A DNA stretch of 36,270 nucleotides. Origin: Thermoleophilia bacterium. GTDB lineage: Bacteria > Actinomycetota > Thermoleophilia > Gaiellales > SKUG01. Location: NCBI GenBank assembly GCA_025964405.1, contig JAOPYW010000247.1, positions 1-36,270 of the forward strand. Direction: 5' to 3'. The notes under the pieces are model-generated. The model had not been told where the DNA came from, did not search any database, and was given only the letters and a program-made list of their open reading frames with translations. Made by a program: the position numbers and the translations under genes. Positions 5,745 to 28,308 of the stretch are shown piece after piece; within the stretch, counting starts at the first letter, position 1; the number at the start of each line of letters is the position of its first letter.

Positions 5745-6179
5745 CTAGCTCACCATGCCGTTGAGCACTTCGGTGATCATCTGCTTCTGCGAATCGAAGA
5801 GCGACGACTGCAGCTCCTTGAGCGTGTTGATCGTCGTCTCGTTCACGCCCGGCGATGCCATCGCCCGCGTGATGCTCACGAGCACGTCCTGCGTGGTCGG
5901 CTCATCTGGCAGGTCGAGCACGGGTGCGTTGTAGGCCTCCGCCTTCGGCTGCGTCGCGGCAGGCTGCGCCGCCGCGGCTGCGGTTCCCGTCGTCGCGGCG
6001 GCGCCCTGCGCAGCAGTCGCGGCTCCGGCCGTTCCGGTGGGGGCGACCTGGACCGCGGCGCCCAGCAGTGGGTTGGTCGCGATCGACGACGCCACGGGGG
6101 TGGGCGCCACCGTCGACGACGTCGCGGCGGCAACCGCGGCGTCGACTCGCAGGTTCCCGACTGAATTGAGTGCGGTCAT
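5745..6179 (-). CDS. hypothetical Ala/Thr-rich protein (144 aa)
   Basis: The ATG at 6179 is preceded by GGAGGAAGC. The N-terminal two thirds are Ala/Thr/Gly-rich; the C-terminus is helical (INTLKELQSSLFDSQKQMITEVLNGMVS). No family recognised. Confidence 0.55.
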   Translation of the reverse strand: MTALNSVGNLRVDAAVAAATSSTVAPTPVASSIATNPLLGAAVQVAPTGTAGAATAAQGAAATTGTAAAAAQPAATQPKAEAYNAPVLDLPDEPTTQDVLVSITRAMASPGVNETTINTLKELQSSLFDSQKQMITEVLNGMVS

Positions 6180-6696: not shown

Positions 6697-7377
6697 TCAG
6701 TCGACGGCGGTGTCCTCGCGCGCGCGCTCGATGTTGTGCGTGTCGAGCACCGGATCGGGCTCACCGCGGCCGAACACGCCCACCGTCTGGAACACGAGCT
6801 TCACGTCGTTCCAGAGGTTCCACGTGTCGATGTAGTGCGCGTCCTGGCGGATCCGCTCGGGCCATTCGATCTCGTCGCGGCCGTGCACCTGTGAGTAGCC
6901 CGTGACCCCGGGCAACACCTCGAGCCGGCGCCGGTCGGCCGCCGAGTAGTGCACGCTCTGCTCCGGGATGTCAGGGCGAGGGCCGACCAGGCTCATCTGC
7001 CCGACCAGTACGTTGAAGAGCTGCGGCAGTTCGTCGAGGCTCGTGCGCCGGAAGAAGCGACCACTCCGCGTGATGCGCGGGTCGTCCTTCACCACGCCGT
7101 GCGGATCGTCGGTGACACCGAGTTCCTGTCCGACGCGCACGGCGTCGTTGACCATCGAACGGAACTTGAGCATCGGGAACTCGCGGCCGCCCTTGCCGGT
7201 GCGGCGCTGCACGAACAGCACGGGCCGCCCGGCGTCGATGAGCACCCAGGCCGCGAGCGCGAGCAGTACGGGCGACAACACCACGAGGAGCACCGCGGCC
7301 ACGACCCGGTCGCCGAGCCACTTGAGCACGCGCTGCGCGGGATGGCGCTGCACGCCTGATCGGTCGCTCGTCGCCAT
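6697..7377 (-). CDS. small bacterial sugar transferase (monotopic phosphoglycosyl transferase, PglC/WbaP-C-like)
   Basis: One N-terminal hydrophobic helix, then RPVLFVQRRTGKGGREFPMLKFRSM...DELPQLFNVLVGQMSLVGPRP, the signature of the Bac_transf family. Confidence 0.9.
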   Translation of the reverse strand: MATSDRSGVQRHPAQRVLKWLGDRVVAAVLLVVLSPVLLALAAWVLIDAGRPVLFVQRRTGKGGREFPMLKFRSMVNDAVRVGQELGVTDDPHGVVKDDPRITRSGRFFRRTSLDELPQLFNVLVGQMSLVGPRPDIPEQSVHYSAADRRRLEVLPGVTGYSQVHGRDEIEWPERIRQDAHYIDTWNLWNDVKLVFQTVGVFGRGEPDPVLDTHNIERAREDTAVD

Positions 7378-7381
7378 CGCC

Positions 7382-8437
7382 TCAGCGCCCCCGCCAGGGC
7401 GGGAAGAACCCAGCCGTCGAATCGCTTCCCGCAAGCGCACGGTACCGCTCCGCGTCATGCACGAGCTTGGCGATGTGGAACGGGTGCGGCTCGCTCGTCG
7501 GGTCGTAGCGGTGCTTGAACACGAACAGCGGCGACTCCGTGCCCGCACCAACGCCCCCACCGAGGTGGAACACCTCGAGCCCGCGCGACTGCGCCCACTC
7601 GGCCGCCGACAGGAAGCACCGGTTCGACGCGCCGATGTTGCGCGCCTCGGGGCCGGAGGCGCCGAGGTGGTAGTGCAGCGCCTGTGCATCGGCGAAACAC
7701 AGCAGCGACGCCACGAGTTCGCCGCCGAGCCGACCGTTGACGAGCACCAGCCCGAGCCCGGGCTCGGAGACCAACGACTGCCAGTAGGCGTCGTCGAAGA
7801 AGTAGAACGGGTCTGCCTGCTGTCGCTGCATGGTCAGGTCGTAGAGGCTGCGGAACTCCGCGAGGTCGGCCGGATGGGTGAGCACCTCGACCTCGAGCTC
7901 CGCACGCTCGGCCTTGCGCACCACGCGGCGATGGTGGCTGTGCATGTCAGCCATCAGGTCGCGGCCGGCCGCGACGTTCCAGGCGACCGTGGCTCCGAGC
8001 TCGATCACGTCGGCCGTCGGCGGCGCGAAGCGCGCATTCCCGAGCAGGGGGTGGAAGCGCAGGAAGGAGCTGACGACACCATTGGCGACGGCCCACGCAT
8101 CGAACGCAGCGGCGAACGCCGTCAGGTCGGGGCGGCCCTGCGCCACCGGCCCGCCGTAGCCGTACGCGCTCGAGGCATCCCAACCCGTGCCGTCGGGGAG
8201 CGGTCGCAGCAGGAGCGGCAGCGCCAGCTCCCCACCCTGGTCGCGCACGTGCAGCAGCACCGGCGTCGTGCCCGGCGCCTCGAGCGCGACCGACGCGCGG
8301 TGGTAGGCGATCCGCAGGTACGTGTCGTCGCGGCCGAGCCGCGTGACCAGGTCGTCCCACGCGTCGTGTGCGACGACGTGCACGACGCCCACGTCGACGA
8401 GGGGTGCGGCGGGAACTGTCTGCTCGGCGGGCGTCAT
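7382..8437 (-). CDS. FemAB/CelD-like GNAT-fold protein (Acetyltransf_6-type)
   Basis: 351 aa. C-terminal half LHYHLGASGPEARNIGASNRCFLSAAEWAQSRGLEVFHLGGGVG...FVFKHRYDP resembles FemAB/BioF2-like acyl- or aminoacyl-transferases. The stop is 4 nt from the start of the sugar transferase. Start taken at ATG 8437. Confidence 0.7.
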   Translation of the reverse strand: MTPAEQTVPAAPLVDVGVVHVVAHDAWDDLVTRLGRDDTYLRIAYHRASVALEAPGTTPVLLHVRDQGGELALPLLLRPLPDGTGWDASSAYGYGGPVAQGRPDLTAFAAAFDAWAVANGVVSSFLRFHPLLGNARFAPPTADVIELGATVAWNVAAGRDLMADMHSHHRRVVRKAERAELEVEVLTHPADLAEFRSLYDLTMQRQQADPFYFFDDAYWQSLVSEPGLGLVLVNGRLGGELVASLLCFADAQALHYHLGASGPEARNIGASNRCFLSAAEWAQSRGLEVFHLGGGVGAGTESPLFVFKHRYDPTSEPHPFHIAKLVHDAERYRALAGSDSTAGFFPPWRGR

Positions 8438-8532
8438 CGCTGCAAGTCTACCGGCGCCGGTCGGTGGCCCGCCGGGGCCAAGCGCACGCGTGGGGTGCAC
8501 GCTGGCGCCCACGGAGCTGCGATGATGGGTGC

Positions 8533-9705
8533 ATGTTCGAAGGAAGTTCCATCGCCGTCGTGGTCCCCTGTTACAACGAGGAGACCCAGATCCGCACGGT
8601 CATCGAGACGATGCCGGCCTTCGTCGACCGCATCATCGTGGTCGACGACCGCTCGCCCGACTCGACCGCCGACGTCGTGCGTGACTGCATGCGTACGCAC
8701 CCCAATGTCGAGCTCCTCGTACACGAGGAGAACCGCGGCGTGGGCGCCGGCATCGCGACCGGCTACAAGCGCGCCCTCGAACTGGGCATGGACATCGCCG
8801 TCGTCATGGCCGGCGACGCGCAGATGCCGCCCGGCGAGCTGCCCGACATCATACGCCCCGTGAGCTCCGGCCAGGCCGACTACTCCAAGGCGAACCGCCT
8901 CGTCACGCAGGACGCATGGACCACCATCCCGCGCCAGCGCTTCCTCGGCAACGCCGTGCTCAGCCTCCTCACGAAGATCGCGTCGGGCTACTACCAGGTC
9001 GCCGACTCGCAGACCGGCTACACGGCGATCACCGCCGCGATGCTGCGGCGCCTCGACCTCGACGCGATGTACCCGCGCTACGGCTACCCCAACGACATGC
9101 TCGTGCGCCTCAACGTGCTGCGCGCGCGGGTCGTCGACGTGGCGAGCGTGCCGGTCTACGACGTCGGCGAGGTCTCCGGCATCAAGATCCACCGCGTGCT
9201 GTTCACGATGAGCTGGCTGCTCCTCAAGCGGTTCTTCTGGCGCCTCTGGAAGCTCTACGTCGTGCGCGACTTCCATCCGCTCATCATGTTCTACGCGCTC
9301 GGCATGGTCGCGCTCGTGCTCGGCACGCTGTCGAGCCTGGCGCTCGTCATCATCTCGATCGGGCCGCAGACGATCTCCGGGTCGACCGCCGTCGGTGCCT
9401 CGATCCTCCTGCAGAGCGGGCTGCTGCTCACGCTGTTCGGCATGCTCTTCGACTTCGAGCACAACCGCCCGCTCGTGAGCGAGAGCCGGCCCGTCGGCCT
9501 CGCCGCCGACGCGGTCACGCATGCGCCGATCGCGGCCAGCATCGAGTCGGCTCCCCTCGATCGTGACGGGGGCTCGCGCCCGAGCACCGCCACGACGTTC
9601 GGGCAGGAGCTCGGCACGGGCGGTTCGGGCAGTGTCGACGGCATCACCGGCGACGGCGGCATCGTCTCCGAGATGCGCGCGTTCGCCGCCGACCCGCGTG
9701 ACTGA
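8533..9705 (+). CDS. family 2 glycosyltransferase with C-terminal TM helices (GtrB/DPM1-like polyprenyl-phosphate glycosyltransferase type)
   Basis: IAVVVPCYNEE...VVDDRSPDST...MAGDAQMPP motifs (DxD-like) form a GT-A domain. Two hydrophobic helices follow (HPLIMFYALGMVALVLGTLSSLALVII and GASILLQSGLLLTLFGMLF), then a ~70-aa disordered tail. Confidence 0.88.
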   Translation: MFEGSSIAVVVPCYNEETQIRTVIETMPAFVDRIIVVDDRSPDSTADVVRDCMRTHPNVELLVHEENRGVGAGIATGYKRALELGMDIAVVMAGDAQMPPGELPDIIRPVSSGQADYSKANRLVTQDAWTTIPRQRFLGNAVLSLLTKIASGYYQVADSQTGYTAITAAMLRRLDLDAMYPRYGYPNDMLVRLNVLRARVVDVASVPVYDVGEVSGIKIHRVLFTMSWLLLKRFFWRLWKLYVVRDFHPLIMFYALGMVALVLGTLSSLALVIISIGPQTISGSTAVGASILLQSGLLLTLFGMLFDFEHNRPLVSESRPVGLAADAVTHAPIAASIESAPLDRDGGSRPSTATTFGQELGTGGSGSVDGITGDGGIVSEMRAFAADPRD

Positions 9706-10470
9706 CTAGACCTCGCCACCCCGCGCCATGAAGGCCTGCGGATCCTCGAGGTTCTTGGTGCGATCGTCACCACGGAACAGGCCGAAGTGGAGATGCGGCC
9801 CGGTCGCGAGACCGGTCGATCCGACCTTGCCGATGTGCTGGCCCTGGGTGACGACGTCGCCCACCTTGACGTCCTGCGCCGAGAGGTGCCCGTAGTAGGT
9901 CTGCAGGCCGTCGCCGTGGTCGACGATGATCCAGTTGCCACCGATGCTGTCGGAGCTGACCTGCTTGACCACGCCGCCTGCGGCCGCGTCGACCGACGTG
10001 CCTGCGGGCACGGCATAGTCGGTGCCGGTGTGCGGGATGCTGTTGCGGATCGCCGACACCTCGCCGAAGTGCGACGTGACCGTCGCGTTCTTCACGGGGA
10101 GCTGGAGCTTCTGCTTGCCCGGGTTCCCAGCCGGTGCGGCCGGTGCGGCAGGTGCAACGGGTGCGACAGGTGCGGTCGCGGCGGGCACCGGCGTGGCTGG
10201 CACGTTCGCGTCGGCCAGCGGCGCGCCGGAGGCGCCACCCGAAACGACGTTCGTCGTCGGCCCGGCAGGGCTCCCCAACGCTCCAGCACCCTGCAACGAC
10301 TGCACGACCGCAGCCAGCTGTTCGACGGCCGCAGTCAGGCCGGCGATGGCGCTCGCGAGATCGCCCGGGACGGGCGCCGGCACCTCGCCGCCGCCGGTCG
10401 TCGTCGGTGCCACGTCCGGTGTCGGGGCCGTCGGGAGTGTCGCGGTGTGGGATGTGACGCACATGCTCAT
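9706..10470 (-). CDS. M23 (LytM-type) peptidoglycan metalloendopeptidase with a non-catalytic N-terminal module
   Basis: Catalytic motifs HTGTD (HxxxD) and GPHLHF (HxH), plus GNWIIVDHGDGLQTYYGHL. A PA-rich linker separates this from an N-terminal region homologous to that of the CHAP protein at 27403. ATG at 10470; a second ATG at 10464. Confidence 0.9.
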   Translation of the reverse strand: MSMCVTSHTATLPTAPTPDVAPTTTGGGEVPAPVPGDLASAIAGLTAAVEQLAAVVQSLQGAGALGSPAGPTTNVVSGGASGAPLADANVPATPVPAATAPVAPVAPAAPAAPAGNPGKQKLQLPVKNATVTSHFGEVSAIRNSIPHTGTDYAVPAGTSVDAAAGGVVKQVSSDSIGGNWIIVDHGDGLQTYYGHLSAQDVKVGDVVTQGQHIGKVGSTGLATGPHLHFGLFRGDDRTKNLEDPQAFMARGGEV

Positions 10471-10531
10471 GGCATCAGCATGCGCCCTGATGCGTCAATC
10501 GCGACTAGGAAGCTCTACCTAGGCTAAGCCC

Positions 10532-11977
10532 CTAGACGTCGGCCGGTTCGCTCGCGGCGCGGCGGGCATCGATGAGGCCGAGCCGCAGCACGAGGCCGAC
10601 CCAGGCGAGCCCGCACACCACTGCGACGAGCATCCGCGCACCGTCAGCCGCTACGAACAGGGGCGGAATCGCCACTCCGAGACCGAGTGCGACGCCCCGC
10701 GCCGCCCGGCCGACCTCGACCCGCGCGCCGTGCCTGCGGGTCGCGTGCCACTGCAGTGCGAGCAGCACGACGATGCTCACTGCCAGCACCGCCCAGGCGA
10801 CGTCGCGCTCCGGGTGGCCCACCGACTCGCGCGCCGCGATCCACGCCGCGCACGCGGTCGCCGCCACACCCGCCCCGCCGATCGCCAGCGCGCCGCGCAC
10901 ACGACCGATGGCGACGTCGACCGCAAGCAGCCCCGACACCACGGTGATCACGGCCGTCGCGAGCGCGAGCGGCGCGACGACGAGGTCGTCGATGCGGTAC
11001 GCGTGCCCGAACACGACGCGCGCAGCCGCGTCGCCCGCAGCGACGAGGATGCAGGTCGGACCCGCCAGCAGCACCAGGGTGTCGGTCAGCGTGCGACGGA
11101 TCGCCTGCGCTCGAGCCGCAGCGCCGCGTGCGGCGACGATGGCCGGCACCATGGCGATGCTCGTCGCCTGCAGCAGGAAGAACGGCACGTGCGCCAGCGT
11201 TCCGTACGCCACGTACACGCCCACCGGATGTGACGCGCCGCCGAGCACGCCCGACATCGCGAAGACGTCGACCACGAAGAACCCCGTCACCGCCACCGAG
11301 GCGAGGGCCACCGGCACGACGTGCGCGAGCATGCGACGACGCACCGGCGCCACCGGCACCGCGGCCGCAGGGTGGCGTGCGAGCAGGGGAGCCGACGCGA
11401 CGAGCGGCGCGAGCACGTAGCCCACGATCGCCCCGTCGATGCCCCAGGCCGCCGCTCCACCCACGGTCAGCACGAGGCGCGCGACCGCGTAGGCCGCCTG
11501 CGTGAGCGACTGCCGCGCGTAGTCGCGCACGCCGGTCGGCCAGGCCAACAGCACCGCGTTGACGCCGAACGACAGCGCGCCGAGGGAGCCGATCGCGAAC
11601 TGCACCGCGAGGTCACCTGACCCGAACCACCGGGAGGCGAAGGGCGACGCGGCGACGCCGAGCACGGCGAGGCCGATCGCGAGACGCATGCCGAGCCCGG
11701 CCCCGGCGCGCCATGCGGTCGCGGTGTCGACATCGCTCCCCGCCATCTCGCGCGCCGTGCTCGTGGCGATGCCCTTGACCAGGAGCGCGGTCAGGATGGT
11801 GATCCAGGAGAGCACGACCCCGTATCCGCCGAAGTCGTCGGGGTCGAGCATGCGGGCGAGGATCGTGGTCGATCCGTACCCGAGCACCACGTAGAGGCCG
11901 TTGGCGAGGGCGAGCAGGAGCACCCCGCGGCCGAAGCCGCTCGTGGTGTCCTCGCGATGTGGCTCAGTGACTGACAT
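10532..11977 (-). CDS. polysaccharide/oligosaccharide flippase (Wzx-like, MOP superfamily)
   Basis: 481 aa with about 14 hydrophobic helices. The N-terminus LLALANGLYVVLGYGSTTILARMLDPDDFGGYGVV is typical of polysaccharide biosynthesis (Wzx) proteins. Confidence 0.8.
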   Translation of the reverse strand: MSVTEPHREDTTSGFGRGVLLLALANGLYVVLGYGSTTILARMLDPDDFGGYGVVLSWITILTALLVKGIATSTAREMAGSDVDTATAWRAGAGLGMRLAIGLAVLGVAASPFASRWFGSGDLAVQFAIGSLGALSFGVNAVLLAWPTGVRDYARQSLTQAAYAVARLVLTVGGAAAWGIDGAIVGYVLAPLVASAPLLARHPAAAVPVAPVRRRMLAHVVPVALASVAVTGFFVVDVFAMSGVLGGASHPVGVYVAYGTLAHVPFFLLQATSIAMVPAIVAARGAAARAQAIRRTLTDTLVLLAGPTCILVAAGDAAARVVFGHAYRIDDLVVAPLALATAVITVVSGLLAVDVAIGRVRGALAIGGAGVAATACAAWIAARESVGHPERDVAWAVLAVSIVVLLALQWHATRRHGARVEVGRAARGVALGLGVAIPPLFVAADGARMLVAVVCGLAWVGLVLRLGLIDARRAASEPADV

Positions 11978-18731: not shown

Positions 18732-21146
18732 ATGGAAACCATCCTCACCATCATCGCCACGCTGCTGGCCACGACCCTCGTCACCTGCGTGCCCGGCGCG
18801 GCGCTGCTGAGCGTGCTCCACCTCGATCGCGTCGTGCCGCCCCCGCTCGTTCCCGGTGCGGCGCTCGTGGTCGGGCTCGTGCCCATGGGCACCGCGCTCG
18901 GGCTCACGCTCTGGTGGTCACTCCCCATCGCCTACGTCGCCGGCGCGCTCGCGTTCCTCACGCTCGCCTGCTGGGCGACCCTCGCCGGACGCGTCAGGGC
19001 CGACGCCCGCCGAACCACGCCGCGCGACCGCTACCGCATGTCGCATGCGCGCGCGTGGGGCAGTCCGGCCCTGCGGCTCGTCGCCGGTGACTGGGCGCGC
19101 GCGATTCCGCTGGCCGCGTGGATCGTCGCGATCGCGACCCTCGCGATCGCCCTCACCGTCGGCTTCAACACCTGGAACGATTCGCTGTACCACATCGGCC
19201 AGGCCCAGAAGCTGCTGGCGCTCGACCACCCCGACTTCAACAACACCCTCCAGTTCCCCGACGGAACCGCGCACCCGGGCTACGTGCTCCCGATCTGGCA
19301 GGAGCTGATCGCGCTCGTCGCGTGGGTCACCCACGCCAACCCCGTCACCGTCGCGTGGATCATCCCCGGGGTCACCGTCACCATCGGGGCCCTGTCGATG
19401 GGCGGGCTCGGCTGGGCGCTCGCGCGCACCCCCAGGGCCACGGCGCTCGTCATGGTCGCGTGGCTGACCTCGGTCGTGATCGCCACGATGCCGTTCTCGG
19501 AGGCCGTGTTCGACGCGCTCCAGCCGGGCGAGGTCGCGCTCGACGTGATCATCCCGCTGGTGCTCGCGCTGCTCTTCACCGCGCTCTGGCCGACGACCGA
19601 CCTCGACGCCGGGCCCGGCACCCTGACCCCGCGCCAGTCGACGTGGGCCGCGACGCTGCTCATGAGCATCGGCGTGGCCGAGATCGCGCTCCTGCACGTG
19701 AGCTACAACATGGTGCTCGCGCTCGGCATCATCGGCTACCTCGCATTCTGGGCCCTGCGCTCGCCGTGGCCGCGCGAGGTCGTCTGGCGACACGCCCGTG
19801 TGCTCGTACCGATCGCGATGTCAGCGGCGGTGACCACGGCCATCCTCGTGCCCGGCCTGAGCAAGCTGCAGAGCTTCGGCAAGACGGCGCAGGAGGAGCT
19901 CAAGCTCAACAGCACCGACCTGTACAAGGGCAAGCTCGGCGCGCCGCTCGAGGCGCTCCTGCGCGGGGGCACCGAGCACTTCCACCTGCGTCCCGACTAC
20001 CTCGTGCTCGGTGGCGGGCTCGCGCTCGTCGGCCTGCTCGCCCTGCCGCTCGCGCTGCTCGCGCCGCGCTGGCCCGCGGGCTGGTACCTCTCGGGTTCCG
20101 CGCTGCTCGTGCTCGGCATCGCCCTCTCCGATCGTCTCTTCCCGGCATTCGTGACGGCGGTGTCACTCGACCAGGCCCGACGCATCGAGACGGTACTGCC
20201 CCTGTCAGCCGGGCTCGCGCTCGGGGCGGCGGCCACCGGTATCGTCGGCACGCGCCTGTGGGCGCACGGCACCATCCCGGCGCGCACGCTCGCCGCGTTC
20301 ACCATCGCTGCGGTGGTAGGCGCCGCAGCGCACGCCGCCGACACGATCGGGCAGCTCGGCGGCTACGGCGGCGACACCATCGTGAGTGGACGCTGGATCC
20401 TCGCGCCGCTCGGCGTGCTGCTGCTGGGCGCGGCCCTCTACGTCATCTCCCTCGCCGTGCGCGTCGTGGTCGCGCCGATCGAGCGGCGCACGGCGCCACG
20501 CGAGGGCGACGTCGAACGCACCCGCTCGCGCCTGCGTCGACTGCTCCCCATCGCCACCTGGGAGTGGCCGAGCGCGCAGCTCACGAACTCGGCGTCGCTC
20601 GTCGCACTGCTCGTGCTGCTCGTCGGGGCGGCGCCGCTGTGGGGGCGCATCGACGACACGACGCAGCCGATCCGTCGTCACGGTATCCCGCTCGACCAGC
20701 GTGAGGCCGAACTGCGGCTCTTCGCGCCCGAGGTCGCGGCCGAGCTGCGCACGCTCCCCACCGACACCGTGCTGCTCGCCGACCCGACGGGCCGCAACCC
20801 GTACTACGCGATGGCGCTCGCGCCGATCTACGTCGTCTCGAGCGTGCCGCGCCACACGGCGACGACCCCGAAGAACCGGGTGCCCGAGCGCTTCGAGGAT
20901 GCCACCGAGTTCTTCGACCCGAAGACGTCGAACACGCGCCGCCTCGAGCTGCTCACGAAGTACGACGTGACGGCCATCGTGATCCACCCGAATGCGAACC
21001 CGTCGATCATGGAGTTCCTCACGTCGATGCCCGGCATCACGCCGGGTGCGATCGGCAAGAACCAACGGCTCTTCCACGTCAGCCCGCAGCGCCTGCTCAC
21101 CGCTCCTCCGCTCGACGGCGCGGGTGGGTTCGTCAAGCTGCGCTGA
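18732..21146 (+). CDS. large polytopic membrane protein with a C-terminal soluble domain (candidate GT-C-type glycosyltransferase)
   Basis: 804 aa. More than 12 hydrophobic helices over the first ~600 aa, then a ~190-aa hydrophilic C-terminal domain. The architecture resembles polyprenyl-phosphate-sugar-dependent GT-C enzymes. The family was not identified by motif. Confidence 0.7.
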   Translation: METILTIIATLLATTLVTCVPGAALLSVLHLDRVVPPPLVPGAALVVGLVPMGTALGLTLWWSLPIAYVAGALAFLTLACWATLAGRVRADARRTTPRDRYRMSHARAWGSPALRLVAGDWARAIPLAAWIVAIATLAIALTVGFNTWNDSLYHIGQAQKLLALDHPDFNNTLQFPDGTAHPGYVLPIWQELIALVAWVTHANPVTVAWIIPGVTVTIGALSMGGLGWALARTPRATALVMVAWLTSVVIATMPFSEAVFDALQPGEVALDVIIPLVLALLFTALWPTTDLDAGPGTLTPRQSTWAATLLMSIGVAEIALLHVSYNMVLALGIIGYLAFWALRSPWPREVVWRHARVLVPIAMSAAVTTAILVPGLSKLQSFGKTAQEELKLNSTDLYKGKLGAPLEALLRGGTEHFHLRPDYLVLGGGLALVGLLALPLALLAPRWPAGWYLSGSALLVLGIALSDRLFPAFVTAVSLDQARRIETVLPLSAGLALGAAATGIVGTRLWAHGTIPARTLAAFTIAAVVGAAAHAADTIGQLGGYGGDTIVSGRWILAPLGVLLLGAALYVISLAVRVVVAPIERRTAPREGDVERTRSRLRRLLPIATWEWPSAQLTNSASLVALLVLLVGAAPLWGRIDDTTQPIRRHGIPLDQREAELRLFAPEVAAELRTLPTDTVLLADPTGRNPYYAMALAPIYVVSSVPRHTATTPKNRVPERFEDATEFFDPKTSNTRRLELLTKYDVTAIVIHPNANPSIMEFLTSMPGITPGAIGKNQRLFHVSPQRLLTAPPLDGAGGFVKLR

Positions 21147-21323
21147 CCCCCACCCGCCGGTCGCGGAGCGCGCGGTGTCATGGTCGCGCACATGCACCGT
21201 GACCCCGCGAAAAGCGCCGCTAACAAAAGCATTACTCAAGTCGTGCAGCGCGCGAACCGACCTGCAGGGGTACTGCGGTCGTTCGAGGTACCACCTGGCC
21301 TCACCGCAGTGGAGGCACGCACC

Positions 21324-22016
21324 ATGAGCGACACCAAGGGACAGCACATCCTGATCGTGGAGGACGAGGAGAACATCTCGTCGTTCGTGAAGCTCTACCT
21401 CGAGCGCGAGGGCTTCAACGTCACGATCGCCCCCACCGGCGCGGAGGCCATCGGCGCCTTCGAGGAGAAGGTCGACCTGGTCACCCTCGACCTCATGCTC
21501 CCTGACATGGACGGCCTCGAGATCTGCCGCCAGATCCGCGCCAAGAGCACCGTGCCGATCATCATGCTCACGGCCCGCGACGAGGACATCGACAAGATCG
21601 TCGGGCTCGAGGTCGGTGCCGACGACTACGTCACCAAGCCGTTCAACGCGCGCGAGCTCGTGGCGCGCATCAAGTCGATCCTGCGCCGCGCCAGCGCGCC
21701 CGTGAAGACGTCGAAGCGACTCGAGAGCGGCCGCATCCAGATCGACGCCGCCCGGCGCGAATGCCTGGTCGACGGCGAGCAGGTGATGCTGGCCCCCAAG
21801 GAGTTCGACCTTCTCTGGGAGCTGCTCGAGCGCAACGGTGACGTGCTCGATCGCGAGCACCTGCTCGAGAAGGTGTGGGGCTACACGTTCGCCGGCGACA
21901 CCCGCACCGTCGACGTGCACGTGCGCCAGCTGCGCAAGAAGCTCGGCGACGACTGTCCGATCGTGACCGTCTGGGGCTCCGGCTACAAGGTCGGCACCGA
22001 GGTGCACGCCGCGTGA
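21324..22016 (+). CDS. OmpR-family response regulator
   Basis: Receiver domain ILIVEDEE...DLVTLDLMLPDMDG...DDYVTKPF and a winged-helix C-terminus DTRTVDVHVRQLRKKLG. GGAGG RBS at 21311. Confidence 0.95.
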   Translation: MSDTKGQHILIVEDEENISSFVKLYLEREGFNVTIAPTGAEAIGAFEEKVDLVTLDLMLPDMDGLEICRQIRAKSTVPIIMLTARDEDIDKIVGLEVGADDYVTKPFNARELVARIKSILRRASAPVKTSKRLESGRIQIDAARRECLVDGEQVMLAPKEFDLLWELLERNGDVLDREHLLEKVWGYTFAGDTRTVDVHVRQLRKKLGDDCPIVTVWGSGYKVGTEVHAA

Positions 22017-22056
22017 CGGTGCCCGTCCGCCTGGCCGCAGCGCGGAGCCAGACGCC

Positions 22057-23097
22057 ATGATCATGTCGCTCCGCGCACGCCTCGGCGCCCTGGCGGCGCT
22101 GCTCGTGCTCGGCGGCCTCGCGGTCGGCGGCATCGCTGCGTGGGTCATCGTCAGCGACGTCACCCACCGCGACGCGCGGGCGGCCGTGGTCGTCGGCACC
22201 GCAACCGTCGCCGTGCTGCTGGTGATCGGCGGCGTGCTGCTCGTGCACCGCCAGCTCGCGCCGTTCCTTCACCTCGTGCGCGCGTCGCGCGAGATCACCC
22301 AGGGCCGCCATCCCGACGAGGCCCTCGGGAGCATCCGCCTCGACGGCGAGCTCGCGGAGATCGCCGACGGCATGCGCACCCTCGCGCTGCGCCTGCGCGA
22401 GATCGACGCGACCGATCGCCGGTTCCTCATGTCGATCTCCCACGAGCTGCGCACGCCGCTCACCGCGATCACCGGGCACGCCCAGGCGATCGAGGACTTC
22501 GCCGACGAACCCGAGATGCGCGGCCAGTCGGTGCAGGTCATCCGCAAGGAGGCCGAGCGACTCGAGCGACTCGTCGAGGACATCGTCGACCTCGCGCGCC
22601 TGCGCTCCAACCGGTTCACGACCGTCACGGAGAGCGTCTACCTCGACGAACTCGGCGAACACCTGCTCGCGATCTTCGACGGCTCCTCGCCGGGTGCCGA
22701 GCCCGCGCCCGGCGCGGCGCGCGTCGACGTCGCGGGTGACTTCGAGCACGTGATGCTCCACTCCGACGGCCAACGCATCCTCCAGATCCTCCGCAACCTC
22801 GTCGGCAACGGGCTGCGGTACGCAGACACCACGGTCACGGTGACGGGTGAGCGAACGTCGGGCGGCCACGTGAAGCTGGCCGTCTTCAACGATGGGGAGC
22901 CGATCTCGGAGCTGCAGCGCGAGCGCATCTTCGAGCCGTTCGTCGGTACGAAGCGCGAGGGTGGCCTCGGCCTCGGGCTCGCGATCGGCCGCGAACTCGC
23001 CTGGGCCCTGGGCGGCAACCTGCGCTGCGTCGACCGCGTCGACGGCGCGGAGTTCGAGCTGCTGCTGCCGCTCGAGCCGCCGGATTTCGATCGCTGA
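22057..23097 (+). CDS. sensor histidine kinase, intramembrane-sensing type (two TM helices separated by ~11 residues)
   Basis: TM1 ALAALLVLGGLAVGGIAAWVIV, loop SDVTHRDARAA, TM2 VVVGTATVAVLLVIGGVLLV. A HAMP-like segment follows. H-box SISHELRTPLTAI, N-box RNLVGNGLRYA, G-box REGGLGLGLAI. Confidence 0.9.
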   Translation: MIMSLRARLGALAALLVLGGLAVGGIAAWVIVSDVTHRDARAAVVVGTATVAVLLVIGGVLLVHRQLAPFLHLVRASREITQGRHPDEALGSIRLDGELAEIADGMRTLALRLREIDATDRRFLMSISHELRTPLTAITGHAQAIEDFADEPEMRGQSVQVIRKEAERLERLVEDIVDLARLRSNRFTTVTESVYLDELGEHLLAIFDGSSPGAEPAPGAARVDVAGDFEHVMLHSDGQRILQILRNLVGNGLRYADTTVTVTGERTSGGHVKLAVFNDGEPISELQRERIFEPFVGTKREGGLGLGLAIGRELAWALGGNLRCVDRVDGAEFELLLPLEPPDFDR

Positions 23098-24333: not shown

Positions 24334-25326
24334 TCAGGCCGACCGCAGCTCGCGACTACGGCGGATGAACTCGAGCAGCGCCTGCCCGCGCCGCGAGAGC
24401 CGCCGGTTCGTGCGATGCACGGCGTAGTAGCTCGACTCCGGCGCGAAGCCCGCGATGTCGAGCACCACGAGCGAACCGACCTCCAGCTGCACCCCGATCG
24501 ACTGCTGCCACACGCACCCGATGCCCCAGCCTGAGGCCACCGCGCTCTTCACGCTCTCCTGGTTGCCGAGCTCGGCCTGCACGTCGAAGTGGTTGAGCGT
24601 GAGCCCCCGCTGCGCGAGCTCGGTCTCGAACGTCGCGCGCAGGTTCGCGCCGGGCGACTGGGCCACGAATGCCTCGCCGCGCAGGTCGTCGAAGGCGAGG
24701 CCGACGCTCCCCGCCAGCGGATGCGTCGGTGCCGCCACGAGCACGAATCGGTCCTCCCACACCGGGTCGAACTGCAGCCCCGCGCGCGCCCAGGTGCCGC
24801 CGACGAACCCCAGTTCGAGGTCGTGCGCGAACACCTCGTCGACGATCGTCGCGGCACCCGACAGCCGCAGCTCCATGTGCACGTCGGGGTACTCCACGCG
24901 AAACCCGTGCAGGAGCGGCGGCAGCCAGTGCTCACCGAGACCCGGCGTCGCGCCGATGCGCAGGCGCCCCCCGACGTTCACGTTCATCTGTTCGAGATCG
25001 GCGTACAGCGCCGACTGCAGCCCGACGATCGAGCGCGCATAGCGTTCGAACACGGTTCCGGCGCGCGTGAGCTTGGCGCTCCGGCCGCGTCCGCGGTCGA
25101 GCAGGCGCGTGCCCAGGCGTTTCTCCAGCTCGTTGAGCTGGTGGGTGATGCCCGGCTGGCTCAGGCCGAGCGTGCGCGCCGCGGTCGAGAGCCGCCCGCC
25201 CGCGTCGACCACCGCGAGGAACGTGCCGAAGTGCTGCGGGTTGAGGGGGAGCTGCGCCTGCTGCGGCGCCGACTCCGGGCCCGGTGCGGGCAGCTCGGGC
25301 GAGGTCGCGTCGTCGGGCGTGCTCAT
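24334..25326 (-). CDS. LysR-family transcriptional regulator
   Basis: The HTH region FLAVVDAGGRLSTAARTLGLSQPGITHQLNELEKRLGTRLLDR is followed by a LysR substrate-binding domain. Confidence 0.93.
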   Translation of the reverse strand: MSTPDDATSPELPAPGPESAPQQAQLPLNPQHFGTFLAVVDAGGRLSTAARTLGLSQPGITHQLNELEKRLGTRLLDRGRGRSAKLTRAGTVFERYARSIVGLQSALYADLEQMNVNVGGRLRIGATPGLGEHWLPPLLHGFRVEYPDVHMELRLSGAATIVDEVFAHDLELGFVGGTWARAGLQFDPVWEDRFVLVAAPTHPLAGSVGLAFDDLRGEAFVAQSPGANLRATFETELAQRGLTLNHFDVQAELGNQESVKSAVASGWGIGCVWQQSIGVQLEVGSLVVLDIAGFAPESSYYAVHRTNRRLSRRGQALLEFIRRSRELRSA

Positions 25327-25365
25327 GCTGCCAGCATAGTCGAGGTATCAACGACTCGCATACCT

Positions 25366-25632
25366 TCAGGGGCGTGGCACCACGAGGTCGACGCTCACCG
25401 GGGCCAGCGACGCGATGAGCCCGCCGTCGTCGACGCACGCGGTCAGGCGCAGGGTCTGGCAGGCGTAGTCGTCCCAGTGCGCCGTCAGCTCCACCTCGAA
25501 CGACGCACCCGACGGGCCGATGGCGCCGACCCGCTGCGGGGTGAGGTAGTGCGCGACCAGCGAGTCGAACGGTTCGCGCGCGATGCCGTCGAGGATGCGC
25601 TCGGCGACGCTGCGGGCTTCGGCTCGGTGCAC
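25366..25632 (-). CDS. small hypothetical protein (88 aa); start uncertain
   Basis: Strong G/C third-position bias across 25366-25632. The first in-frame plausible start is GTG 25632, which has no good RBS. Sequence upstream in the same ORF is Arg-rich and looks non-coding. It ends 39 nt before the LysR start. Confidence 0.4.
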   Translation of the reverse strand: MHRAEARSVAERILDGIAREPFDSLVAHYLTPQRVGAIGPSGASFEVELTAHWDDYACQTLRLTACVDDGGLIASLAPVSVDLVVPRP

Positions 25633-25773
25633 GGGTGGATCCAGTCGTCGGGCAGCGCCGGGGCGGCAGCCAAACCGACCATGTGCCCGTCGTCTGCGGG
25701 AGTAGGCCCGGGGGCCGTGTGCGGTCGTTGCAAATGCGAAGTAATGGGACGACGCGGGAACAGTTTGGAGGGA

Positions 25774-27303
25774 ATGCACGTCGGGCAAACGAGCCGCATG
25801 CCTTCTGCTGCGCGCCGCTTCCCCCATGCCCTGCTCCTGCTCGTGATCGTGGGGTCGGCACTGCTGCTGACGCTCGCGCAGGCGCCGAGTGCGCCGGCCG
25901 CGACGGGCCGCGTCACGAACGGCGCGACCGTGACCGCCGAGGCCTACGCCGCGCGCTGGACGGCGATCGCAGCCCTCGTGGGATCGAGCGAGAAGGACGC
26001 GCGGCTCGGCCAGTTCTGCGGTGGCACGTTCGTGTCGGCGACCGAGGTCGTGACCGCAGCGCACTGCGTCTTCGACGACGAGGACGTGATCATCTTCCAG
26101 GACGGCGACCACGTCTCGTACTTCAACTTCACGTCGACCGGCGACCCGAAGGAGCTGCAGGTGCTCGGCGGCCGCCGCGTGCTGAGCGACGCCGACGGCG
26201 TGCGCCTCAACGTCTCGCACGTGCTCATCAATCCGCGCTACGACCCGCGCACGAGCCGCTACGACAGCGCCGTGATCGTGCTCAAGGATCCGGTGCCGAC
26301 CGGCAGCGGCATCACGTTCATGCCGCCGATCGAGGCGGGCAGCGACGCGGCGTGGGGCGCGGGCGGCGGCATCGCGGCCGGCGCGAACGGTCCGTTCATC
26401 GCGGGCTGGGGCTACCGTTGGCTGCCCAACCAGTCGTTCCTCTTCACGGGCGCGAACCACACGCCGACCCACCGCCCCAAGAACCCGAAGGTGCCGGCGT
26501 CATCGTCGAACGCACGCTCGGGCACTGCGGCCAAGGCCGCCCCGGCCGGCAAGTCGTCACGGAGCGTCGCCAACGGCCTCGAGGAAGCAGCGCTCCCCAT
26601 CGTCAGCGACCGCGCGTGTGACGTCGGCGGTGCCGGAGCGGGACTCGGCTACGGCCGCGACTTCGATCCGAGCACGATGGTCTGCGCGGGCACGCTCGAC
26701 ACGAGCGACGCGAACGACGAGGGCGCCGTCACCAACGGGGTCGACTCCTGCTACGGCGACAGCGGTGGTCCGCTGATGGTCACCACGGCCGCAGGCCCGC
26801 GGCTCGTCGGCATCGTCAGCTTCGGCGAGGGATGCGCGACGCGCGACACGTACGGGGTCTACACGCGCGTGGCGGCGATGCGCCCCTTCCTGGCCGGCAA
26901 CCACGGCATGCCGGTCGCGAACAAGAAGGCCCCGAAGGTGCTCGGCACGCCGTCGACGGGCTCGACGCTCCACTGCGCCAAGGGCACGTGGACGGGTGCG
27001 GGACCGATCCGCTACAGCTACCGCTGGGTGCGCTCGTTCGAGAACGACTCGAGCAACGACGAGTACGGCATCTACGAGCGTGTGCCCGGGAGCTACCTCG
27101 GCGGCAAGTACAAGGTGAAGTACGCCGATCGCGGTTCGCTCATCCGCTGCATCGTCATCGCGAAGGGCGCGTCGTCGACGAAGGCCGTCGTCTCCGCGTT
27201 CGCGAAGGTGCCGGGCCGCGTGCCCGGCGCGCCGGTGCCCTCCTCCAGCGAGGGAAGCGACGAGGGTGGCGAGGACTTCTCGCTCTCGACCTTCGGTCAC
27301 TGA
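25774..27303 (+). CDS. secreted trypsin-like (S1 family) serine protease with a C-terminal extra domain
   Basis: Signal peptide RRFPHALLLLVIVGSALLLTLAQAPSAPA. Catalytic His in TAAHCV, Asp in RYDSAVIVL, Ser in GDSGGPL. A C-terminal ~110 aa follows (TLHCAKGTWTGAGPIRYSYRWVR). Alternative starts at 25744 and 25798. Confidence 0.85.
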   Translation: MHVGQTSRMPSAARRFPHALLLLVIVGSALLLTLAQAPSAPAATGRVTNGATVTAEAYAARWTAIAALVGSSEKDARLGQFCGGTFVSATEVVTAAHCVFDDEDVIIFQDGDHVSYFNFTSTGDPKELQVLGGRRVLSDADGVRLNVSHVLINPRYDPRTSRYDSAVIVLKDPVPTGSGITFMPPIEAGSDAAWGAGGGIAAGANGPFIAGWGYRWLPNQSFLFTGANHTPTHRPKNPKVPASSSNARSGTAAKAAPAGKSSRSVANGLEEAALPIVSDRACDVGGAGAGLGYGRDFDPSTMVCAGTLDTSDANDEGAVTNGVDSCYGDSGGPLMVTTAAGPRLVGIVSFGEGCATRDTYGVYTRVAAMRPFLAGNHGMPVANKKAPKVLGTPSTGSTLHCAKGTWTGAGPIRYSYRWVRSFENDSSNDEYGIYERVPGSYLGGKYKVKYADRGSLIRCIVIAKGASSTKAVVSAFAKVPGRVPGAPVPSSSEGSDEGGEDFSLSTFGH

Positions 27304-27402: not shown

Positions 27403-28308
27403 ATGACCACCTCGATCACACCCGGCAGCGCAGCCAGCACGCCGAGCCTGACGCCGCTCGCCACTGCCGCGAACACGGGCGGCGGCGCGACCGCGCCTCC
27501 GTCGCTGGCGACCGCGATCGCCGACCTGACGCAGGCGGTCTCCGCGCTCAGCGCCGCCGTGCAGGCGCTCGCCGGCGCGTCGCAGGTCGCAGGTGGCGGA
27601 CCGACCACGAACGCCGCAGGCGGGTGCAGTTGCGGATCTGGTGCGGCCGAGGGTGCCGCCGCCGGTGCAGCGAACGGTGTCACGGGTGGCGGCGCGACAG
27701 GTGCGCCATCCACCGTCCCCACGCAGGGATCGCCGAGCATCCCGGGAAGCACGACGCCGACGTCGCCCGCGACGCCCGCCCCGCCGGCAGCGGGCGCGCC
27801 GTCGTCGTCAGTGCGCGACAAGATCCTCGCCGCCGCGCGCGGCGAACTCGCCAAGAACGTGACCGAGGACGCCGGTGCCAACGAGGACCGCGCCGGCAAC
27901 ATCAAGAAGTACCGGGCCGCGGTGACCGGCGGCATCTGGGCCGACGGCCGCGGGCCCGAGGAGTGGTGCGCCGACTTCGCGTCGTGGGTCTGGAAGGACG
28001 CCGGCGCGGCCTTCGGGCCGAAGGGAACCGGCGAGGCCAACACCTCCAACATGATCCAGCAGGCCAAGGAGCTGGGGTCGTGGAAGACGAATGACCCGAA
28101 GCCCGGCGACATGGTGCTGTTCGACTGGGGCGGCGCACGCGGCACGCCCGACGAGGCGAGCGTGGTCGACCACGTCGCGATCGTCGACCGCGTCGAGAAC
28201 GGCACGGTGTACGTCATCGGCGGCAACCAGTCGGATGCGCTCACGGCGGTCGACTACGGCATCGACGACAAGCACATCCTCGGCTACGTGAACCCGCCGG
28301 GCGCCTGA
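27403..28308 (+). CDS. CHAP domain peptidoglycan hydrolase with a non-catalytic N-terminal module
   Basis: Catalytic Cys in EEWCADFASWVW and His in VVDHVAIVDRV, followed by VIGGNQS. The N-terminal ~70 aa are homologous to the N-terminus of the M23 protein at 9706..10470. Confidence 0.88.
   Translation: MTTSITPGSAASTPSLTPLATAANTGGGATAPPSLATAIADLTQAVSALSAAVQALAGASQVAGGGPTTNAAGGCSCGSGAAEGAAAGAANGVTGGGATGAPSTVPTQGSPSIPGSTTPTSPATPAPPAAGAPSSSVRDKILAAARGELAKNVTEDAGANEDRAGNIKKYRAAVTGGIWADGRGPEEWCADFASWVWKDAGAAFGPKGTGEANTSNMIQQAKELGSWKTNDPKPGDMVLFDWGGARGTPDEASVVDHVAIVDRVENGTVYVIGGNQSDALTAVDYGIDDKHILGYVNPPGA

Follow-up and report, generated by a model that had tools for sequence, protein, structure and literature searches.

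An N-terminal helical module shared by M23 and CHAP putative wall hydrolases of Thermoleophilia, a candidate tether or assembly handle

In the FtsEX-controlled peptidoglycan hydrolases and activators EnvC, PcsB, RipC and CwlO, an N-terminal helical, non-catalytic part precedes a C-terminal M23, CHAP or NlpC/P60 domain and is used for docking and regulation, not for catalysis. These proteins carry Sec or Tat signal peptides, and their helical parts are coiled-coil hairpins of 150-250 residues. A second point of comparison is given by dockerins, short modules made of a calcium-binding EF-hand pair, which flexible linkers join to a range of unrelated catalytic domains and which are exchanged among these domains. 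Here, we describe an N-terminal module found on two putative wall hydrolases, one of the M23 and one of the CHAP class, encoded in a stretch of 36,270 bp (70% G+C) from a contig of an uncultured 'Thermoleophilia bacterium' metagenome-assembled genome (MAG), hereafter the window. The module resembles the non-catalytic part of EnvC, PcsB and RipC in its place in front of the enzyme. However, it has no signal, and it consists of a single helix of ~28 residues, flanked on both sides by disorder; the AlphaFold2 (AF2) models show no second one. The comparison with EnvC, PcsB and RipC drawn in a first-pass annotation of this DNA thus holds as an analogy, not as a close equivalence, because signal and hairpin are both missing. 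The module likewise shares with dockerins its shortness, its linker and its exchange among lytic domains, but it has no sequence or fold relation to them and no known cohesin-like partner, and its enzymes would cut peptidoglycan and not polysaccharide.

The M23 protein (254 aa) is encoded by the maximal open reading frame (ORF) at 9706-10470 on the reverse strand and the CHAP protein (301 aa) by the maximal ORF at 27403-28308 on the forward strand, and both starts are identical in public gene calls. Peptidase_M23 (PF01551) was matched at residues 146-234 of the first protein (E = 8e-30, 103 bits for a cutoff of 28.7), with the HxxxD and HxH zinc motifs present as HTGTD and HLHF. CHAP (PF05257) was matched at residues 187-275 of the second (E = 5e-14, 52.9 bits for a gathering cutoff of 26), C189 and H257 being invariant in an alignment of 17 sequences. 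The best Foldseek matches of this CHAP domain were the CHAP lysin Ly7917 (5d74) and the CHAP domain of phage phi812. These Pfam assignments confirm that the catalytic folds of the two proteins are unrelated, as had been proposed. The N-termini of both proteins had no Pfam or NCBIfam match.

The two proteins follow the same plan, and AF2 predicted for each a disordered leader, one helix of ~28 residues with a predicted local distance difference test score (pLDDT) of ~80, a disordered linker and a well-folded catalytic domain. In the M23 protein, all on the reverse strand, the leader (residues 1-36; 10363..10470; pLDDT <50 for residues 1-35) starts with MSMCV, is rich in Thr, Pro and Ala, contains no Lys or Arg and shows TTGGG at residues 24-28. 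It is followed by the Asp-capped amphipathic heptad helix LASAIAGLTAAVEQLAAVVQSLQGAGAL (residues 38-65; 10276..10359; pLDDT ~80), by a linker without Lys or Arg that is first Gly-rich and then Pro/Ala/Thr-rich (residues 66-118; 10117..10275; pLDDT <50 for residues 65-113) and by the catalytic domain with HTGTD and HLHF (residues 119-254 and stop; 9706..10116; pLDDT 85-97). In the CHAP protein, all on the forward strand, the leader (residues 1-34; 27403..27504; pLDDT <50 for residues 1-3 and 7-29) starts with MTTSI, is also free of Lys and Arg and has TGGG at residues 25-28. The heptad helix LATAIADLTQAVSALSAAVQALAGASQV, then AGGG, occupies residues 35-66 (27505..27600; AF2 helix 35-62, pLDDT 78-86), and the C-x-C motif GGCSCGSG comes after it (residues 73-80; 27619..27642). 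A linker rich in Gly, Ala, Thr, Pro and Ser (residues 81-134; 27643..27804; pLDDT <50 for residues 64-134) leads to the catalytic domain, which contains WCADFASWVW, DHVAIV and GGNQ (residues 135-301 and stop; 27805..28308).

The N-terminal similarity between the two proteins is far above chance. Residues 1-84 of the M23 protein and 1-102 of the CHAP protein had 38 identities over 106 positions (composition-adjusted BLASTP, E = 4e-4). In a Smith-Waterman comparison, residues 1-80 of both proteins scored 124, compared to 46.5 +/- 7.6 for shuffled sequences (z = 10), and this score was reached by none of 5000 composition-matched shuffles and by none of 5000 block shuffles, in which local composition is preserved. 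The shared module claimed in the first-pass annotation therefore stands against the shuffled controls. Nearly all of this similarity sits in the 26-residue helix, which alone gave z = 9.2, so that the amphipathic helix, seen by AF2 in each protein, is indeed common to both. The other elements of the original description fared less well. The 28-residue Thr/Pro/Ala-rich leaders ending in TGGG exist in both proteins, but they are not significantly alike (z = 2, with 230 of 5000 shuffles reaching their score). The position-for-position alignment was right in the similarity that it reported, but as quoted it left out EVPAPVPGD (9 residues) and ATAPPS (6 residues) between TGGG and the helix. Similarly, GPTTN is present in the two window proteins but restricted to them; the conserved closing motif of the module is G-A-x-x-V-x-GGG. 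At the nucleotide level, different codons were used at 9 of the 16 identical helix residues, and the G+C content at third codon positions (GC3) in the annotated frame was 0.84-0.89, which indicates that the module region is translated and conserved at the protein level. Overall, the N-terminal module common to the M23 and CHAP proteins is real and selected at the protein level.

Neither window protein has a classical signal peptide. In-frame stops lie 9 (M23) and 17 (CHAP) codons upstream of the ATGs, and no alternative start can yield one. The first Lys or Arg is found at residue 119 of the M23 protein and at residue 138 of the CHAP protein, in both cases at the start of the catalytic domain, and no Arg occurs before residues 142 and 138, respectively. 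For a Sec signal, a basic n-region is thus missing (no Lys or Arg in residues 1-118 and 1-137), as is an adequate hydrophobic h-region of 7-15 residues: the Hessa insertion free energies of the helices, summed over 19 residues, were +4.7 and +6.5 kcal/mol, compared to -0.7 kcal/mol for MPSAARRFPHALLLLVIVGSALLLTLAQAPSAPAA, the signal peptide of the neighbouring trypsin-like protease. Since this protease of the same window has a normal signal peptide, ordinary signals are used in this genome. No twin-arginine motif of the Tat form S/T-R-R-x-F-L-K was found in either N-terminus and no lipobox L-[AS]-[GA]-C of a lipoprotein signal, the G-C-x-C-G motif coming after a polar hinge with Gly or Ser at -3 and no h-region before it. 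The absence of a Sec- or Tat-type signal, noted from the start, is thereby upheld. By contrast, module-free CHAP relatives carry either a classical N-terminal membrane anchor, in paralogues from Thermoleophilia/Gaiellales (loci L045, L046, L061 and L063), or a Sec signal peptide, in Kitasatospora, Streptomyces and Saccharothrix. Their anchoring or Sec secretion indicates that the CHAP catalytic domain acts outside the membrane, and the module occupies the place where these relatives have a signal peptide or a membrane anchor.

We searched for further copies with a hidden Markov model (HMM) of 50 columns built from 15 modules. Members scored 50-61 bits (59 for the window M23 protein and 58 for the window CHAP protein), and in six-frame translations of the window and of the first six loci nothing else exceeded 5 bits. 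Over ~1.3 Mb of loci in six frames, no other match reached E = 0.01. Of 1.84 billion representative proteins, searched exhaustively, 31 matched the HMM at E <= 1e-3, and 13 of these matches were tandem-repeat or tetratricopeptide-repeat artefacts. The remaining 18 were true clusters of only 1-3 sequences each, with the module at the N-terminus of proteins of 190-370 residues, and all members with an organism name came from Thermoleophilia or Gaiellales MAGs. Among 80 loci of species-representative genomes with a related CHAP domain, most of them from Myxococcota, two carried the module, and it was absent from 80 metagenome loci found with the CHAP alignment. A phage origin of the module was rejected, since it was also absent from 13 viral contigs with a related CHAP domain. 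A pattern scan of metagenomes with the closer subset of modules matched 231 stretches, none of which was confirmed, and residues 1-75 of the M23 protein gave no matches as a word-indexed query, the orthologues being reached via the full-length proteins. At least one divergent copy (L089:10926-11903) escapes the module HMM, and the family is therefore undercounted. As judged from these searches, the module is rare, lineage-restricted and previously undescribed. Outside Thermoleophilia, the closest relatives of the CHAP subfamily (L009-L057 and others) come overwhelmingly from Myxococcota MAGs, where the CHAP domain is preceded not by the module but by repeats that resemble, by eye, peptidoglycan-binding repeats. 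In Solirubrobacter, CHAP stands at the end of ~600-aa proteins with a region that appears, also by eye, to be of the transglycosylase type.

The anatomy of the family was read from 28 modules, made up of the 18 cluster representatives, the orthologues of both window proteins and two copies read from L007 and L089. All 28 align without gaps through the helix, which is capped by Asp in 24. Six successive a/d positions of the heptad (helix positions 1, 5, 8, 12, 15 and 19) are L, I, V or M in every member. At g, Ala predominates (26 of the 28 modules at helix positions 4 and 11, 22 at 25 and 11 at 18), and the residues at b, c, e and f vary and are polar. A heptad with hydrophobic a/d residues in a predicted helix is the generic mark of a coiled coil. 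The helix closes with [LM]-x-G-A-x-x-V-x-G-G-G, in which G was found in 24, A in 22 and V in 20 of the 28 modules and the glycines after V in 20-24. In the alignment of CHAP orthologues, L42, L49, A45, A55, G58, A59, V62, G65 and G66 were invariant or nearly so. In 20 of the 28, including the VanY member, the member with a fourth fold and one M23 member (see below), C-x-C or CC, usually as GCxCG, comes at most ~45 residues after the helix. The whole module holds 0-3 Lys or Arg per member. The leader is disordered, 20-85 residues long and contains one to four GGG motifs, and the disordered linker to the catalytic domain (~30-110 residues) is made of Pro, Ala, Thr and Gly. The extreme N-terminus is also conserved as M-x-x-x-I/V/L, with MGGTIAS in many members and I, V or L at residue 5 in 20/28; two gene calls that seemed to deviate merely start too late. 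Taken together, the predicted physical nature of the module, a disordered leader, a coiled-coil-type helix and hinges, is well supported by the alignment and the models.

The same module was found in front of four catalytic folds: mostly CHAP, six times M23, once VanY/M15 (P0145) and once a fourth domain (P0154), which has no Pfam match and matches phage tape-measure and endolysin families of the PHROGs database. All four domains match endolysin or tape-measure PHROGs, and all module carriers are putative wall hydrolases. Module similarity does not track the catalytic class, and the helix of the window M23 protein has its nearest counterparts among CHAP helices from other genomes. The CHAP protein P0153 and P0154 are 62% identical over their first ~150 residues and unrelated beyond. 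A single orthologous slot in a Gaiellales-like clade, located after a CapP/IrrE-like gene and in some loci before genes for a major facilitator superfamily (MFS) transporter and a Zincin_1 protein, encodes CHAP (L007, L008, L092/L093), VanY (L087), the fourth domain (L088) or M23 followed by CHAP (L089). These swaps and the class-independent similarity of the modules indicate that the module is constant and the lytic domain exchangeable. M23 and CHAP module genes occur together in this window and are adjacent in L089 (10001-11903), where the M23 gene is followed 149 bp later by the CHAP gene; with corrected starts, the first 17 residues of the two are nearly equal (MASALSSVAPPMPPSAA and MGSALTNIAAPMPPSAA). 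The proposal that a shared non-catalytic module points to a common role was thereby strengthened, the module being carried by four catalytic folds and exchanged among them in relatives.

No named domain could be recognised in the module, as the first reading had supposed. Searched against Pfam and NCBIfam at E up to 10, the 28 modules gave no consistent match and only scattered weak coiled-coil hits, most frequently the DUF7310 coiled coil (5/28, best E 0.005) and the Lpp leucine zipper (2/28). A profile search of the PDB returned nothing below E = 0.13; its best, non-significant matches were GCN4-pAA (2hy6), the designed CC-Type2 (E 0.13-0.5) and a flagellin-related chain. The Lpp zipper, GCN4-pAA and CC-Type2 have in common with the module a 3-4 spacing of Leu, Val or Ile, intervening residues that are small, or polar and uncharged, and Ala beside the core. 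However, Lpp is lipidated and Sec-exported, the module helix is half as long, and these matches are not significant. No FtsEX-type hydrolase or activator model was named among the Pfam and NCBIfam matches of the module, and the annotated genes of the window and of the regions flanking the module loci did not include ftsEX. PF24568 and PF19425, unnamed accessory domains on other M23 matches, never matched the module. In the literature, we found no description of the module, no mention of DUF7310 and nothing relevant on Thermoleophilia wall hydrolases.

Among the roles that had been put forward for the module (export, targeting, partner docking or autoinhibition), the evidence favours docking or assembly on a tether, without settling the matter. 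We propose, with a probability of roughly 40%, that the module is a lineage-restricted, exchangeable N-terminal handle of wall hydrolases that works like a dockerin or a leucine-zipper tether. The hydrophobic a-d-g seam would pack into a coiled coil, either with further copies of itself, with modules borne by other hydrolases, as M23 with CHAP, or with an envelope partner. The Cys pair might clamp this assembly by a disulfide or a metal, and the long linker would let the catalytic domain reach into the wall. As no Sec or Tat signal is present, the information for export would lie in the module or in the partner that it binds. This proposal draws on the conserved a/d/g seam, on the isolated helix of the AF2 models and on database neighbours that, weak as they are, are only coiled coils. 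It also draws on the presence of the module on four lytic folds, on its class-independent similarity, on the swapping within one slot and on the co-occurrence of M23 and CHAP carriers. Several observations weigh against it. No partner was identified for the helix, which has almost no charged e/g residues, unlike typical soluble coiled coils. The two modules of this genome are identical at 16 of 34 positions, which is only the fifth-best match for the M23 helix, and show no special co-variation. The neighbours of the M23 and CHAP orthologues differ between clades, with no conserved operon partner, and no candidate receptor or exporter was found in the flanks examined. Finally, docking alone accounts neither for the export of the hydrolases nor for the conserved extreme N-terminus and the motifs [LM]-x-G-A and V-x-G-G, the last two of these features being what a cleaved export leader would show.

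Such a leader is the main rival, although we consider it unlikely. The amphipathic helix and the extreme N-terminus would be recognised by a dedicated Sec/Tat-independent exporter, either of the double-glycine/peptidase-containing ATP-binding cassette (ABC) type or of an undescribed type, and the module would be removed at [LM]-x-G-A or V-x-G-G. This would explain how proteins without a Sec or Tat signal place catalytic domains that belong outside the membrane, and why the extreme N-terminus is conserved. In double-glycine leaders, which also mediate export without a Sec signal, an amphipathic helix is followed by a hydrophobic residue at -4 and by G-G/A/S at -2/-1, and two conserved motifs of this layout, with Gly-Gly/Ala at -2/-1, come directly after the module helix. 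A constant N-terminus on a variable lytic C-terminus also resembles secreted polymorphic effectors and bacteriolysins. Yet the hydrophobic residues of the module are spaced -7/-11/-14 and not at the canonical -7/-12/-15, and with its 50-115 uncharged residues the module is unusually long for a double-glycine leader. The linker of ~30-110 residues and the conserved C-x-C that follow the putative cleavage site, in front of a large enzyme, are unexpected for a leader that is discarded, and it is for this reason that we favour the tether. Bacteriocin-leader families were rejected as an identity, and no bacteriocin-leader, NHLP, Nif11, WXG100 or LXG profile matched any of the 28 modules at E up to 10. 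The annotated regions beside the module loci contained neither a C39-peptidase ABC transporter nor another secretion-system gene, and no immunity-like gene is conserved downstream. Two known export routes were also set aside. A type VII substrate (WXG100/LXG/PE), which would form a helix-turn-helix hairpin with a WxG or LxG turn and a YxxxD/E export motif, does not agree with a module that has one helix, no Trp and no Tyr motif, nor with the lack of WXG100 or LXG matches. Flagellar export was considered because the nearest M23 relatives outside Thermoleophilia carry the Rod_binding domain of FlgJ (PF10135), but the module neither aligns to nor matches PF10135, and the window contains no flagellar genes. 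In a wider form, which we also hold to be rather doubtful, the module may be the recognition signal of an undescribed Sec/Tat-independent route for hydrolase export in Thermoleophilia/Gaiellales, with the lytic domains as a polymorphic secreted set; it might then represent a new leader class for an ABC-type or other exporter, or support self-assisted export via the coiled-coil helix.

The remaining explanations place the enzymes inside the cell, restrain them or anchor them. Canonical phage endolysins normally have no signal, and signal-less phage endolysins and signal-arrest-release (SAR) endolysins, like the module proteins, bear CHAP, M23 or VanY lytic domains without a classical signal. 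The module proteins could accordingly be cytoplasmic enzymes that reach the wall upon a breach of the membrane, in regulated autolysis or in stress- or phage-induced lysis, with the module multimerising them or holding them at the membrane. The matches of all four catalytic domains to endolysin or tape-measure PHROGs are in line with this, as are seven Gaiellales-like loci where the hydrolase gene lies directly downstream of, and co-oriented with, genes for a CapP/IrrE-like protein and a small partner. CapP and CapH activate host-killing immune operons upon DNA damage (bioRxiv 10.1101/2022.04.27.489752; PMC13228613). However, the module genes are chromosomal and in a non-phage context, no holin-like gene stands beside any member, and none of the 13 viral contigs with related CHAP holds a module-bearing relative. 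The hydrolases had no PADLOC match, the CapP-like protein is without its catalytic Glu, and its linkage may reflect collinearity of a long housekeeping syntenic block, the two genes of the window having no CapP-like neighbours. In addition, long Pro/Thr-rich linkers free of Lys and Arg, as well as Cys pairs, are typical of extracellular actinobacterial proteins. We therefore regard such endolysin-like enzymes as improbable. An autoinhibitory pro-region, in which the helix or the GGG segments would occupy the active-site groove until proteolysis or release by a partner, seems hardly convincing either. N-terminal autoinhibition is common in M23 and CHAP/NlpC-P60 hydrolases, with parallels in the occluding region of LytM, the lysostaphin propeptide, PcsB and RipA. 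The first Lys or Arg falls exactly at the start of the catalytic domain (119 and 138), the CHAP gene is directly preceded by a gene for a secreted trypsin-like protease both in this window and in L095, and GGG motifs could mimic the glycine bridges cut by M23 enzymes. Against this, a single sequence would need to block the active sites of four unrelated enzyme folds, and its conservation follows the pattern of a helix-helix seam and not that of a substrate mimic. AF2 moreover showed disordered linkers and packed the helix with confidence on neither catalytic domain, inter-domain confidence not having been inspected. Least probable by far is a weak signal-anchor or SAR-type segment using the Sec/YidC route. 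The Kyte-Doolittle means over 19 residues are borderline (1.4-1.7), and the Ala/Gly/Ser/Thr-rich composition resembles that of SAR domains. Nevertheless, the insertion energies given above are far from that of the real signal peptide in the window, and the helix contains conserved polar and acidic residues and is too polar for such a segment. SAR domains also have a basic N-terminus, whereas no basic residue precedes the module helix, so that the positive-inside rule would leave the catalytic domain in the cytoplasm. An identity of the helix as a SAR-endolysin, transmembrane or signal-anchor segment was therefore rejected.

Only two local conservations were seen around the module genes. In the clade of the window, the trypsin-like protease stays beside CHAP, and in the Gaiellales-like clade, the CapP-like pair stays beside the hydrolase. 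The serine protease (25744-27303, forward strand) has a classical RRF-type signal peptide, and its gene precedes that of CHAP by 100 bp in the same orientation; in L095 (3021-4514), the distance is 53 bp, again with both genes on one strand. The adjacency is thus kept between orthologues of 52% identity. The mechanically called protease ORF (24589-27303) is far too long and overlaps a LysR gene on the opposite strand, the likely start being near 25744-25798. The CapP-like block, found upstream of the module hydrolase in L089 (7706-12256), L007, L008, L087, L088, L092 and L093, runs in the order MarR, a membrane peptide of 30 aa (MRDFDAFFP...), a protein of 129-147 aa without family and an overlapping CapP-like protein of ~330 aa; a Zincin_1 gene follows in some loci. 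The ~330-aa protein matches IrrE/M78 (E 7e-7) and PADLOC CapP (E 3e-15). Its zinc ligands and the Cys of the Cys switch are retained, and HALGH, HGLGH or HGLAH stands in place of HExxH, the catalytic Glu being missing.

The M23 gene of the window lies inside a glycan/exopolysaccharide cluster (6697-11977), which comprises a priming phosphotransferase (6697-7689, reverse strand), a FemAB-family protein closest to PEP-CTERM-associated FemAB (7382-8512, reverse), an AglJ-like glycosyltransferase of family GT2 (8368-9705, forward) and a Wzx-type flippase (10532-11977, reverse). The GT2 and M23 genes are convergent, and their stop codons abut at 9705/9706. M23 orthologues elsewhere are found outside such a cluster. 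A lysostaphin-style immunity conferred by the FemAB gene was rejected, as its product best resembles exopolysaccharide-associated FemAB and the gene is not kept beside M23 orthologues. Two further proteins of the window are without Pfam or NCBIfam family. The first (5745-6179, reverse strand; GC3 0.85), of ~144 aa and without signal, is rich in Ala, Thr and Pro over its N-terminal half and helical over a short C-terminal stretch (…TINTLKELQSSLFDSQKQMITEVLNGMVS), does not match the module HMM, and is encoded by an ORF that overlaps the long upstream extension of a cold-shock-domain ORF on the opposite strand. The second (18732-21146, forward strand), of 804 aa with a hydrophobic N-terminus, adjoins a two-component system (21180-23097), and the start of its ORF overlaps the 5' end of an M16 peptidase gene on the opposite strand.

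Wall hydrolases are dangerous to the cell that makes them, and their export, placement and restraint are central to the study of bacterial growth and division. In a deep-branching, almost uncultured actinobacterial lineage, a single undescribed handle is found on at least four lytic domains. As a docking zipper, the module would imply a lytic complex of several enzymes or an envelope scaffold not yet known; as an export signal, it would define a new route of secretion. In addition, this module of ~60 residues could serve as a tag for assembling or exporting enzymes in actinobacteria.

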